Shown one piece after another: positions 2,722 to 53,141 of a stretch of 64,000 bases of DNA (the first letter of the stretch is position 1; every line of letters begins with the position of its first letter). The stretch is from positions 66,030,001-66,094,000 of the forward strand of contig OZ024747.1 of NCBI GenBank assembly GCA_964016885.1, given 5' to 3'. This DNA comes from Eledone cirrhosa (taxonomy: Eukaryota). A program made the position numbers and the translations under genes. The notes under the pieces were generated by a model. That model saw only the letters and a program-made list of their open reading frames with translations. It was not told where the DNA came from and did not search any database.

Positions 2722-2909
2722 GAAAAGAGTCAGGACCCCGACGGCTGAGCTCCGGCCGTTTCGACAGCTAGGTCTGAACTAGCTGTCAAAACGGCCGGAG
2801 CTCAGCCGTCGGGTCCTGATTCTTTTCCTATTACCCACTCTACTACCCTAAGTATCGAGTACTCTGGTGCGTTATAGACCACCTGGTTCCTTACCACACT
2901 TCCTTCGTT
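2722..2909 (+). mobile_element. Fold-back element family A (HHR 3' half plus tail)
   Basis: Inverted arms ~2722-2770 / 2779-2827, then tail TTACCCACTCTACTACCCTAAGTA..CCTTCGTT shared with copies at 9.6, 9.8, 20.1, 34.6 and 50.1 kb. Confidence 0.85.
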
Positions 2910-5900
2910 CAAGGGAGGCGCCGTGGTGGTGTGGCGCGCGGACCTCTACACGGCCGAAGCCCTCAGGCAGCTCCGTAACCCCCACTTCTACCGCCTTCTA
3001 CCCTCCGATCCCACACCCCTCTACCAACAACAAGTATTCTCCACCATCCAACACCTTGTCTCCCCCCCCCCCCCCACCGCTTCCCACCTCATCGTCCGCA
3101 CCCCCGCACCCCCACTATCTACTTCCTCCCCAAACTCCACAAACCCGACAACCCCGGCCGCCCCATCGTCTCCGCTTGCAACTGCCCCACCGAACTCATC
3201 TCCGCCTTTCTTGACTCCATCCTCGCCCCCCTTGTCACCACCCTCCCCTACCACATCTCCGACACCAACCACGCCCTGCACCTTTTCGACTCCTTCACCT
3301 ACCCTCTCGGCCCACAGCCCTTCCTCTTCACCCTAGACATCAAGTCCCTCTATACCGTCATCCCCCACGCCGACGGCCTACGTGCTCTCAAGCACTCCCT
3401 CGACCTTCGCCCCTCCCCCATCCCCTCCACTCCCACCCTCCTTCGCCTCGCCGAGCTAGTCCTCACCCTCAACTGTTTCTCCTTCTCGGGTGAGTTTTAC
3501 CAACAGGTCACGGGGGTAGCCATGGGTACAAGAATGGGCCCAAACTATGCCAACCTTTTTGTTGGCCATGTTGAGGCCCAAATCTTTGCCCAGTACACCG
3601 GCCCCACGCCCGAACTGTACGGTCGTTACATCGACGACTGTATCGGAGCCACGACCCTCACCCGAGAACAGCTCGACTCCTTTCTCTCCTTCTTCTGCTC
3701 CTTCCACCCCTCCCTCCACTTCACCACCTCTATCTCCACCACCCACGTCCACTTCTTAGACATCTCCGTCGCCTTCGATCCCTCCCACCACTCCCTCGTC
3801 ACCTCCGCCTTCTTCAAACCCACTGACTCCCACTCCTACCTCGACTTCACCTCTTCCCACCCCACACACACTAAACACTCTATTCCCTACTCCCAACTCC
3901 TCTGGATCCACCGCCTCTGTAGCCGAGATGCTGACTTTGAGTCCCAGGCTCTTTCCCTAGTCAGCCATTTCATCCGCAGAGGTTACCCCCCTCTCTCGTC
4001 CACACCGCTCTCACCCGCGCCCGTGCTGTCCACCGCTCCACTACCCTCACCCCACGCCACCGCACACCCACCCACCGTCTCCCCTTCCCCATCACCTACC
4101 ACCCCTCCACCATACCCCTCCACCGCACCATCCTCTGCCTCTTCCGACGCCTCCAGTCCGACCCCTCCACCTCCCACATCTTCCTAGCCCCACCAATCCC
4201 CGCAATCTCCGCACTCTCCTCGTCCACAGCTCCCTACCCCCAACCCACGCCCCCCGTTCCCTTCCCTTTTCCAGACCCCGCTGCAACACCTGTCCCCACA
4301 TCACCAACACCACCACCTTCCAGGGTCCCAACGGCCACTCTCTCTCTGTCCGGCATGCCTTCCGCTGCACCTCCTCCAACCTAGTCTACGGACTTATGTC
4401 GAACAGACTGGACGTCGCTTGACGGACAGGTTTACTGAACACCTCCGAGATATTCGTCTCGGTGGTAGTTCCCCCATCGCCGGCCACTTTGGTGCCCCTG
4501 GACATTCCGCACACCACCTCACAGTCTGTGGCCTACTCCAATGCCACGGAACAACCGCCACTCTCCTCAGGGTCGAACAACGAACCATCTTCACCCTACA
4601 GACCCACACTCCCCCCGGCCTGAACTCCCCACCCTTATTCCTTTAGTCTTCGACCGCCCCCTCCCCCACACATATCCCCCACTAACACCACTAACACACC
4701 CCTCCTTTTCACCGCCCACTCCACAACTAACAATAATAACACCTCCACCCCATACCCGACCATCCTTCCCCAACTAACATACTAACATCCCTCCCTTCTT
4801 CTCTCCCCCCTCCTTATCACACGCACACACCCACCGGTACATATATACACGCGCTCACACTAAACACACACCCTACTACCACCACTAACCATCACCCCCA
4901 CACATCCACCCCACCACCCCGCAACTAACATCACTAACACCCCCCCAACCCTACGCACACGAACACACACACCACTTACACCACCCACTCTACACACCCT
5001 ACCACCACTGACCCCTACTCACACCCCCATTCAACCCTTTCTCCACCTCCAGTATACTAACACCCACTAACCCGCCCTTCACCACACACACACTCATCCA
5101 AACACGCACACACACACCAGTACACTACACTCCCTCCATCGGACCCTACACCCTTCTCTCCCCGCTCCACCCACACCCTTTCTCAAACGCACACACATCC
5201 CACTAACACCTCTACTAATACACCCCCCTCCTCACTTCAACTTTCACACCTACCCATTCTCTCCCCTGTCTACCGCACCTCCGCACACACTGACACACCG
5301 ACTTTCTTCACTTACCATTCTACTCTACTGCTGCTATGCCTCTCTGACCACCTCCCCGCACACACAGACACACAACCCTCCTCCTGCCTTGACCCTCTAA
5401 CCACTTCCTGTTGCGCGCGCACCCCACATCTCCCCTCTTCCGACCAATCTCTTCACGGATTACACATATGTGAACCTCGATCCCTAGAATCCACCACATC
5501 CCAAGGATATTACTCAGCATTCCACCACATCGTCTACGGAATTACCTTAAGGACTCACCCGCGGACATACACCCCCAAAAAAATGTTTCCCCACACGCCA
5601 CCTACATCCACAACACGCATAAACACCACACACACACGTGCGTACCACCACATATTTACACATTCAGCCTCCGGAATACTCTCCCCCACCCCTCTATCCA
5701 CACACGCACACACACTCCGACCTACACACCACCCCACACACACCTCTTCCTGAACATGCAACCCTGTTCTTCCCCCAACTCTTACTTTCACATACACACA
5801 CACACACGTATACCTACACACACACACCACCTTCAGCCCTCTCCGCTCGGACACCCCGTCTCCCTCTCCCCACTCCACCCGCCACCACCCCTACACGCCC

Positions 5901-6190
5901 CACACTCTTCCACCACCTGTTTCACTTCATGTGTATTTTTATTCTTATTTTTATCATGCTTTTATATTTAATTTCATTTGTACCGTTTCCTCTCACCCCC
6001 TTTTTTCTATATGTCTCTCCACCACTCCTCTACACACCCTCGGAACTCTCTTCCCACACACTTTTCACCTGAAGAAGGGCATATGCCCGAAACGTCGTTC
6101 CCCACCACCACTCCACTCTCAAGAGCGTGAAACTAATAAACCTTTGTTCGTACTGCCTCTCTGTTTTGTTCCCGTTCAATTTTTTACTAA
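2910..6190 (+). mobile_element. 5'-truncated Penelope-like element (Neptune-like) with frameshifted RT + GIY-YIG ORF (2910-4646), long 3' UTR, HHR and AATAAA
   Basis: KGGAVVVW; FTLDIKSLYTVIPH (motif A); GVAMGTRMGPNYANLF (B'); RYIDD (C); KPTDSHSYL..SSHP thumb; RCNTCPHI..FRCTSSNLVY linker; QTGRRLTDRFTEH..IAGHF..GH endonuclease; AATAAA 6135; ends at (TA)n. Confidence 0.9.
6066..6098 (+). ncRNA. Minimal type I HHR in the PLE pseudo-LTR
   Basis: CTGAAGA-A-GGGC-ATAT-GCCC-GAAAC-GTC. Confidence 0.75.
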
Positions 6191-6350
6191 ATATATATAT
6201 ATATATATATATATATATATATATATATATATATATATATATATATATATATATATATATATATATATATATATGTATATATATATATATATATATATAT
6301 AACCAATTCCATCTCGCCCGTCCCCTCAATCTATTTTATTTGTCATTCTT

Positions 6351-52629: not shown

Positions 52630-52663
52630 TTTACGTTTCTGATTCTAGTCCTTCGTCAGAAGA
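52630..52663 (-). ncRNA. Degenerate minimal HHR
   Basis: CTGACGA-AGGACTAGAATCA-GAAAC-GTA. Confidence 0.45.
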
Positions 52664-52902
52664 TAGAATGAAAAATAAAAAAATGAAATATAAACAGGAA
52701 GGAACAGAAAAAGGTTTTGAAAAAACGCACGTGTGTATTCAGTCAGCCATTTTGGAGAAATGCTGGCACCTAACATATCAGAAAGGCTTAGAAAGGTTTG
52801 TAAATTTTGAGTGGACATATGTGTGTGTGTGCGCTCGTCCGTGCGTGTTGATATAAAATCATTTCAACATCCATGTTACGTATTATACACACACATACAT
52901 AT

Positions 52903-53141
52903 ATATTAAAATAACAGATTAAAGTTCAAGCATAGAATCGCTGCTTTCACCCATAACGGGATCTTCTGAGTTTCAGAAGATCCCGTTAAGGGTGAAAGCA
53001 GAGATTCTTTGCTTAAACTTTAATCTGTTATTTTAATAAATATTTGCTCTACGGTTTTTATATATATTTATATATATATATATATTATCCTTATCGAGCC
53101 CTCTTCGGTTTTTAGTCTTCACATTTTTTATTATTATTACT
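52903..53141 (+). mobile_element. Family B fold-back: arms 52903-52969 / 52973-53038 plus ~100-nt tail
   Basis: Turn-around (GTT loop) at the 5' strand of HHR stem I; core CAGAAGA in both arms. Confidence 0.85.

Follow-up and report, generated by a model that had tools for sequence, protein, structure and literature searches.

Fold-back insertions in (TA)n of Eledone cirrhosa DNA: candidate truncated Hydra-clade Penelope-like elements with two ends that appear to be marked by hairpins

Introduction

The window analysed here is a stretch of 64,000 nucleotides (nt) of Eledone cirrhosa DNA (contig OZ024747.1) that is rich in (TA)n and (CA)n and carries inverted duplications with arms of unequal length. 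It raises the question of what fixes the ends of these fold-backs, and whether they form a class of their own or are products of a known element. A first-pass annotation had proposed a class of non-autonomous palindromes, derived from Penelope-like elements (PLEs) and defined by a hammerhead ribozyme (HHR). The findings below bear out the PLE origin and point to another defining feature. The two fixed ends probably come from two reverse transcriptase (RT) starts, set by tandem bulged RNA hairpins downstream of the HHR, in 5'-truncated Hydra-clade PLEs inserted into (TA)n.

Fold-back insertions in the window

Self-BLAST of the masked window identified 11 fold-back insertions in seven families, designated A, B, C, D, F, G and H, the last two being the copies first noted at 43880 and 47743. 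There were 19 local inverted matches in the masked window and none in each of 10 shuffles. All of the inverted duplications listed in the first-pass annotation are present (A at 2722, 9583, 9764, 34591 and 50190; B at 52903; C at 7212-9371; D at 34892-39025; F at 31133; G at 43971; H at 47745/48626). The members of each family are given below, with plus-signed values counted from the predicted HHR cut and with hairpin 1 being the first of the hairpins described in the next section.

2722..2908, plus strand: family A fold-back with half an HHR; the inverted short arm spans 2722-2774 and the long one reaches +97, with hairpin 1 at 2837-2860
9583..9743, plus strand: family A fold-back that turns around at GAAA of the HHR; hairpin 1 at about 9671-9694 with its outer pair broken
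9766..9931, minus strand: family A fold-back; long arm internally deleted, centre as in the copy at 2722, hairpin 1 at 9837-9814
20131..20244, plus strand: family A single non-inverted copy with the long end; 5' stop at GAAA, flanked by (TA)n runs
34593..34796, plus strand: family A fold-back; arms identical at 65/65 positions, GAAA at 34677-34680, cut predicted to follow 34699, short end at 34719, hairpin 1 spanning 34725-34748
50088..50175, minus strand: long-ended tail-only piece of family A; its stop lies 9 nt beyond the HHR cut, hairpin at 50159-50136
50190..50381, plus strand: family A fold-back; 8-nt spacer, hairpin 1 at 50310-50333
52907..53140, plus strand: family B fold-back; variant-core HHR at 52968-53020, hairpin 1 at 53046-53099
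17754..17832, minus strand: family B single copy, short-ended
22486..22720, minus strand: family B single copy, long-ended; likewise 30248-30449 and 30495-30636
9429-9498, plus strand: family B tail-only piece
7122..9371, unstranded: family C fold-back; 272-nt spacer between the arms
7122-8158, minus strand: family C long arm; HHR at about 7318-7253, hairpin at 7203-7184
8431-9371, plus strand: family C short arm
34481-34562: family C single short-ended copy
34826..39024, minus strand: family D fold-back, with a body assigned as a 5'-truncated Hydra-clade PLE; long end 34826, HHR core 34952, cut after 34914, hairpin at 34886-34868
38703-39024: family D inverted short-ended copy, 323 nt
37415..38702, minus strand: family D coding remnant; RT core, thumb, CxCX5C linker and GIY-YIG-type endonuclease, with a frameshift near the C-terminus
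23694..23827, plus strand: family D single long-ended copy beginning at HHR stem I; likewise 22255-22368 and 44866-44917
31133..31572, plus strand: family F fold-back; complete HHR in both arms (left core intact, right with one mismatch), long-loop hairpin at 31464-31538
43880..44184, minus strand: family G; long arm 43880-44112, half HHR at 44034-44021, variant hairpin at 43966-43934, inverted short arm 44113-44184
47745..48625, minus strand: family H body; remnant of a Hydra-type endonuclease C-terminus, 3' untranslated region, variant-core HHR at 47971-47847, short end
48626..48832, plus strand: family H inverted piece with the long end; hairpin at 48669-48738

As first noted, one arm is shorter than the other; the difference, or tail, is 66-175 nt in all 11 fold-backs, each of which is an inverted 5'-truncated copy with a one-ended tail, a general trait of PLEs. 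Both ends fall at set positions within a family, as had been claimed for the short one. In family A the long end lies at +97 in 7/7 cases and the short end at +19/20 in 5/5. The corresponding values are +114-117 (5/5) and +24-29 (2/2) in family B, +139 and +49 in C, +88 (three copies) and +22 in D, +172 and +57 in F, +141 and +50 in G, and about +281 and +106-110 in H. Single, non-inverted copies end at either the short or the long site (A 20131; B 17754, 22486, 30248 and 30495; C 34481; D 22255 and 23694), in agreement with the two start sites that had been suggested.

At least four TA units lie within 6 nt of 18 of the 22 fold-back ends, as compared with a background of 2.9%. The microsatellite setting described earlier holds for these ends, and not for the long end of A2722, the short end of A9764 and both ends of F, which have no adjacent (TA)n. 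In two places, locus L009 (454-500) and window positions 50176-50191, (TA)n sits exactly at the arm-end site with the element continuing past it, as if the start site expands or is re-targeted. Eight of the 11 fold-backs are within the proposed size range of 150-450 bp, C (2.2 kb), D (4.2 kb) and H (1.1 kb) being larger. The copy placed at 50086 is a tail-only piece plus (TA)8, and the palindrome itself begins at 50190.

The junctions between the arms vary. Spacers in the A, B and F fold-backs are 0-18 nt, giving near-symmetric junctions, and four different junctions occur among the five family A palindromes, those at 2722 and 9764 having a common centre. Two unequal 5' truncations are joined in D (323 nt versus the whole body), G, H and the related locus L006, and in H and L006 the long end is borne by the smaller inverted piece.

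Palindromic shape and TA context, together with one copy in which the arms are 100% identical, might suggest miniature inverted-repeat transposable elements (MITEs) of DNA transposons, fold-back repair after insertion at fragile (TA)n, or assembly chimeras. When terminal inverted repeats were looked for, the termini were found not to be inverted repeats of each other, one terminus lying 66-175 nt outside the duplicated part; the annotation was thus right to set these copies apart from MITEs. Single copies with the same ends and PLE coding sequence in D and H also speak against these readings, as do arms that differ by about 1-8% in most fold-backs and the same short end in reads and contigs of three organisms. 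A TA target duplication would be indistinguishable within (TA)n, where the fold-back ends sit. Explanations of this kind are scarcely credible.

Four further local inverted duplications, absent from the first-pass annotation and with no HHR or hairpin assigned, are present at 56225-56310, 60563-60719, 45682-45758 and 40190-41162, and the first two adjoin microsatellites.

Hairpins in the tails and in related loci

The seven families had been described as having no evident sequence in common. This is not the case, as a bulged hairpin of the form xCTC-stem-loop-stem-TY-GAGx opens every tail, 2-8 nt past the short end, in 7/7 families. A strict rule for this motif is passed by six of the seven window families (shuffle mean 0.017), G being a variant. 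The strict motif is informative only near an HHR, since it has 23 matches across the masked window versus 3-8 in shuffles. A further hairpin-bearing tail lies beside (TA)n at 48849-48930 (minus strand), tail-to-tail with family H.

The motif was defined from the window, loci L006 and L018 and one published 3' end, and was then tested on loci picked by protein similarity. These comprised 79 loci from other organisms, 42 of which have an HHR, 40 with a plus-strand site and 35 with at least 120 nt downstream. It was found in 27 of the 35 HHR-bearing loci (shuffle mean 0.33, maximum 2) and in none of 28 upstream controls. With one locus per family, L006 and L018 excluded and pairing not required, the site is present in 24/30 families. 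Several base-pair types occur at each of four successive hairpin pairs, as judged by anchored sites in 30 families. The outer pair is complementary in 31/34 cases versus 25.0 when partners are shuffled, and the next three in 32, 27 and 23 of 34 versus 23.3, 16.3 and 13.8. A MAFFT alignment of 35 hairpins was set aside because four rows were misplaced, and pairs were counted from the anchored sites instead. Loops are about 3-60 nt long and G-U pairs are present. Rfam gave no match to the hairpin in 10 related loci.

In 10 of the 14 loci examined, two such hairpins are found between the HHR and the ATG. They are separated by 56-82 nt, and hairpin 2 lies 24-36 nt before the ATG. Insertion ends could be compared with the hairpins in 12 informative loci, where a 3' copy ends in flanking DNA and a 5' copy shows the natural continuation. 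The end was placed automatically within -4 to +4 nt of a hairpin start in 8/12 loci, at hairpin 1 in L003, L018 and L023 (about +38) and at hairpin 2 in L015, L016, L022, L024 and L027 (+108 to +128). Two more loci with variant hairpins (L044 and L063) were matched by eye, and there are five extra by-eye fits, namely L006, L009, the minus-strand element of L063 and, via sibling loci, L029 and L031. The ends of published Hydra consensus sequences are likewise two-peaked, 10 falling at +30-48, 2 at +63-70 and 11 at +88-153 (n=23, a count that leaves out Penelope-2_NV, Penelope-18_HMa and the antisense 13_HM copy). By eye, the hairpin is seen in four of the six consensi in File S7 of PMC8557442, one with a compensatory change, and one of the six stops at the short end. 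Hence, the ends appear to be defined by a pair of hairpins downstream of the ribozyme, and not by the ribozyme itself.

Relationship to Hydra-clade PLEs

A CxCX5C linker, RWK and DKT N-terminal motifs and a (TA)n target mark the Hydra clade, one family of which is from an octopus (PMC8557442, section 11). The family D frame encodes a truncated RT-endonuclease with 94 homologues, one of which has a Pfam GIY-YIG match, and its named close relatives are Octopus proteins that are 48-49% identical. The open reading frame (ORF) of D itself has no Pfam match. The CxCX5C linker is present in this ORF and in a second one at 46558-47660, which has a GIY-YIG match, and CX2-5CxxC is found in neither. RxxW and ADKT motifs are seen in an alignment of 18 relatives; D is truncated before that region. 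The body of family H matches a profile of the Hydra-type endonuclease C-terminus weakly (E 1e-4 and 0.011). An RT followed by a C-terminal GIY-YIG domain is found in D and in part in H, and this coding sequence supports the PLE origin that had been proposed. The (TA)n target of the clade is evident both from the fold-back ends and from reads. On the basis of these motifs and of by-eye likeness to a published alignment, the fold-backs are assigned as 5'-truncated insertions of Hydra-clade PLEs into (TA)n.

Linking each family to an RT/GIY-YIG partner, as had been suggested, succeeded for D and partly for H, and not for A, B, C, F and G. A 20-nt family A motif had 0 matches in metagenome and viral contigs, and no A parent was found there.

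Other retroelement sequences lie in the same window. The ORF at 46558-47660 (minus strand) is a second Hydra-type remnant, in which a stretch of about 100 residues rich in Asn and Ser precedes the linker, and it is cut short by (TA)42. A Hydra-type fragment at 28328-28990 has an L1-like inversion, the linker region being on the minus strand and the endonuclease and HHR on the plus strand, with nothing duplicated. At 2909-6190 (plus strand), a 5'-truncated PLE of a different type extends from a DKG motif, has an RVT_1 match and ends in (TA)55. It directly adjoins the long end of A2722, and the hairpin is absent from its tail. From its motifs, we take this element to be Neptune-like. A SINE-like (short interspersed element) repeat occurs in many copies and both orientations (26530-27685, 41700-41878, 49490-49979, 59085-59275 and 61680-63833). 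C-terminal remnants of other retroelements are present at 33789-34343 (minus strand, multiple C2H2 fingers), 309-875 (plus strand, weak zf-RVT match) and 59467-60000 (plus strand, no Pfam match).

Hammerheads and 5' stops

The HHRs considered here are predicted from their sequence pattern. A descriptor scan of the window found 5 strict and 10 relaxed HHR sites, as compared with shuffle expectations of 0.05 and 0.35, and a canonical HHR near the 3' end, a trait of the Hydra clade, is among them. The only Rfam match to Hammerhead_1 in the window is sub-threshold (39246-39290). The arms had been described as HHR-bearing throughout. This is correct for D and F, where the HHR is complete, for C, with a weak stem II, and for B, with one core mismatch. 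In families A and G only GAAA, stem III, the cut site and the 3' strand of stem I were found, with no CUGANGA in register, and the catalytic core is absent from all 6 family A insertions examined. The HHR of H, also with one core mismatch, lies in the body (47971-47847, minus strand), outside the 32-38 nt duplicated arm.

Turn-arounds cluster at the HHR, as the annotation had anticipated. Among 20 long-ended arms, 11 have their stop in the 55 nt upstream of the HHR cut (714 nt at risk) and 3 stop before the cut (1,741 nt), such that the rate of 5' stops just upstream of the cut is 9-fold higher (p 2e-4), on a count in which pieces below 28 nt are invisible and copies are perhaps not independent. 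Cleavage by the HHR was rejected as the origin of these 5' ends, given that read depth is flat across the cut and that the stops are found 20-55 nt upstream of it.

The sub-threshold Rfam match belongs to a further HHR-bearing 3' end at 39101-39480 (minus strand). Its hairpin occupies 39193-39172, and it ends within (TA)n at +152, with no inversion at that end. Additional HHR-like 3' ends of other families are found at 1606, 2464/24847, 6067, 6355/52546, 18189, 23450 and 26359, several beside microsatellites, and well over a dozen PLE-type ends are present in the window. Rfam matches to miRNAs were rejected as palindrome or microsatellite noise.

Family A in public reads

Four public runs were aligned to the family A long arm (34655-34796), a partial stand-in for a genome-wide histogram of ends that reflects restriction-site-associated DNA (RAD) sampling. 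The short end at 34719 followed by (AT)n was seen in 3,571 of 23,387 RAD reads, with 1,398 further reads of an indel variant stopping there, and in 102+112 of 17,575 contigs of run X1. It was also found in contigs of two other organisms, making three in all. The long end was visible in 1,186+1,049 reads, and there was no step in read depth across the predicted HHR cut of family A.

Among the joint rows listed (15 of 18), 13 are opposite-strand joints, with 9 start positions within 34656-34675, the stem II side of the HHR. Among the loose-end rows listed (19 of 335), the 5' strand of stem II is found about 30 nt upstream, in three organisms. Since this is the stem II complement, un-inverted family A parents with a natural stem II are likely to exist. 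Read ends also pile up at 34666; since this position coincides with an AATT site, the pile probably reflects RAD restriction and was not accepted as a turn-around signal.

These data bear on whether the short copies form a palindromic, non-autonomous class that propagates itself, with PLE proteins mobilising it in trans. Family A is abundant, with 6 insertions and a tail piece in 64 kb and 17,575 run X1 contigs aligned, and two of its palindromes have a common centre. Non-autonomous PLE derivatives are known (MRC1 and retrozymes), and pseudo-long terminal repeats (pLTRs) are reported to act in trans. Against this stand the four junctions in five A palindromes and the missing catalytic core in A and G. 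The common centre of 2722 and 9764 is likely the natural stem II loop seen upstream in the loose ends. Moreover, the tail is kept in every fold-back, and a template with hairpin 1 only would not yield one. A propagating class is thus quite improbable, although a non-autonomous master keeping both hairpins may exist. The separate ribozyme-defined class envisaged in the first-pass annotation is accordingly not upheld. Independent dead-on-arrival truncations fit better, because all 11 are tailed, the A core is missing, junctions are varied, single copies have the same ends and D and H retain coding sequence.

Formation of the fold-backs

In PLEs, the tail has been equated with the interval between two RT starts, with both target strands cut and extended (PMC11167929). 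In the model preferred here, each hairpin would load one RT-endonuclease. Self-complementary (TA)n would be cut on both strands to give two equivalent primers, which would anneal to the TA-rich bases immediately 5' of each hairpin. Both RTs would copy uncleaved RNA, often stalling in the HHR fold. Head-to-head joining of the 3' ends of the two same-sense cDNAs, which sit on opposite target ends, would follow, in some cases by way of HHR stem II. The product would be an inverted repeat with a tail on one side, its length equal to the spacing of the hairpins. Without hairpin 2, a short copy would give no tailed palindrome in its daughters and would be dead on arrival. In its full form, with an undescribed, clade-wide hairpin pair loading two RTs, programmed twin priming on both (TA)n strands building the inverted repeat and tail, and the HHR fold as the main cDNA stop, this model has in our estimate an even chance of being correct.

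Alternatively, a single cDNA might snap back and prime its own synthesis at a palindrome or at a stem of the HHR. There would be no second RT start, and the hairpin might mark an endonuclease cut that trims one arm. Self-priming has been proposed for palindromic PLE junctions (PMC3846280) and 'EN-mediated resolution' for the PLE tail (PMC8557442), and the D. virilis tail is cited as required for endonuclease cleavage (PMC11167929). The 0-18 nt spacers of the A, B and F junctions also suit a snap-back. On the other hand, the asymmetric junctions of D, G, H and L006, where two unequal 5' truncations are joined, favour two cDNAs, and the long end on the small inverted piece of H and L006 and the non-inverted copies ending at either site likewise count against a snap-back. 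Variable loop lengths and G-U pairs suit an RNA fold better than a DNA site of fixed spacing. We consider the snap-back unlikely.

Several points weigh against two hairpin-set RT starts. The near-symmetric A, B and F junctions fit a snap-back equally well, and endonuclease cutting, instead of RT starts, could account for the fixed ends. No window family has a visible hairpin 2, so that the rule for the long end comes from relatives only. The motif is missing in 8 of the 35 loci (two of which end before it), the ends of L004 and L045 do not match hairpins, and Hydra-1_Obim in File S7 of PMC8557442 has no clean hairpin match. The partner-shuffle control for covariation ignores relatedness of the loci. 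Whole segments are predicted to fold no more stably than their shuffles (z -1.8 to +1.0), and of 10 minimum-energy structures only 6 display the hairpin clearly. Clustering of 5' stops at the HHR is weaker when family A is removed (p 0.02), and the assignment of A, B, C, F and G, for which the analysis found no parent ORF, comes from the motif only.

The origin of PLE inverted repeats and one-sided tails has been named an open question (PMC8557442). The hairpin pair offers a concrete cis-element with covariation that makes the tail mechanism directly testable, the prediction being that loss of hairpin 1 or 2 removes the matching end and that shifted hairpins change tail length. It also provides repeat curators with a protein-free marker, by which palindromes that lack an ORF and are flanked by (TA)n can be classed as Hydra-type PLEs and not as MITEs or unknown repeats. 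PLEs are the sister group of telomerase, and genome-writing work could take an interest in a structure by which a TERT-related RT is brought to a fixed start on its template.

Comparison with known systems

In L1 twin priming, primers from opposite target strands give rise to an inversion, the second landing upstream at variable sites, with no duplication known. The fold-backs would likewise involve two opposite-strand primers, but both would start at fixed sites, and the 3' end is present in duplicate.

Inverted 5'-truncated copies with a 30-40 bp one-sided tail have already been published for PLEs (PMC8557442, PMC3846280). The Hydra clade (Craig et al. 2021, PMC8557442) resembles the elements described here in its RT followed by GIY-YIG, CxCX5C linker, (TA)n target, DKT/RWK-type motifs (here in relatives) and type I HHR, in which stem II often has U-U at its base. 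It includes the octopus-derived Hydra-1_Obim, and Penelope-13_HM with an inverted 5'-truncated copy. The tails reported there are 30-40 bp, in contrast to 66-175 nt here, and the main text of that paper does not mention 'hairpin' or 'palindrom'.

Poseidon of Anolis (Frangieh et al. 2024, PMC11167929) is similar in that two internal RT starts bound the tail, the target is AT-rich, and both target strands are cut and extended in vitro, with uncleaved RNA used and HHR cleavage not needed. However, its starts lie 30-40 nt apart in an AC-rich stem-loop inside the ORF, whereas both hairpins of Hydra-type loci are upstream of the ATG; no repeated conserved hairpin is described in the accessible text of that paper. 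Penelope of Adineta vaga (Arkhipova et al. 2013, PMC3846280) has an inverted pLTR, a palindromic junction and a 31-bp tail on one arm. It differs in its low copy number, in having target-site duplications and in being read as self-priming on an antisense template, and its accessible description includes no ORF-less short copies.

Non-LTR (long terminal repeat) retrozymes (PMC7229834; bioRxiv 10.64898/2026.07.22.740005) are also short, non-coding and pLTR-related with a type I HHR, but consist of head-to-tail tandem units, each with a whole HHR, and form circular RNA. The fold-backs, in contrast, are head-to-head, with related copies single, and A and G lack the core. In the near-tandem B pair (30248/30495), a whole HHR is found in one unit only.

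A search of the open literature, which did not extend to subscription papers or to Repbase and Dfam entries, found no description of the hairpin pair or of ORF-less PLE palindromes. The fold-back architecture is therefore already known, and in a known clade; the new part is the apparently undescribed pair of hairpins that marks its two ends.

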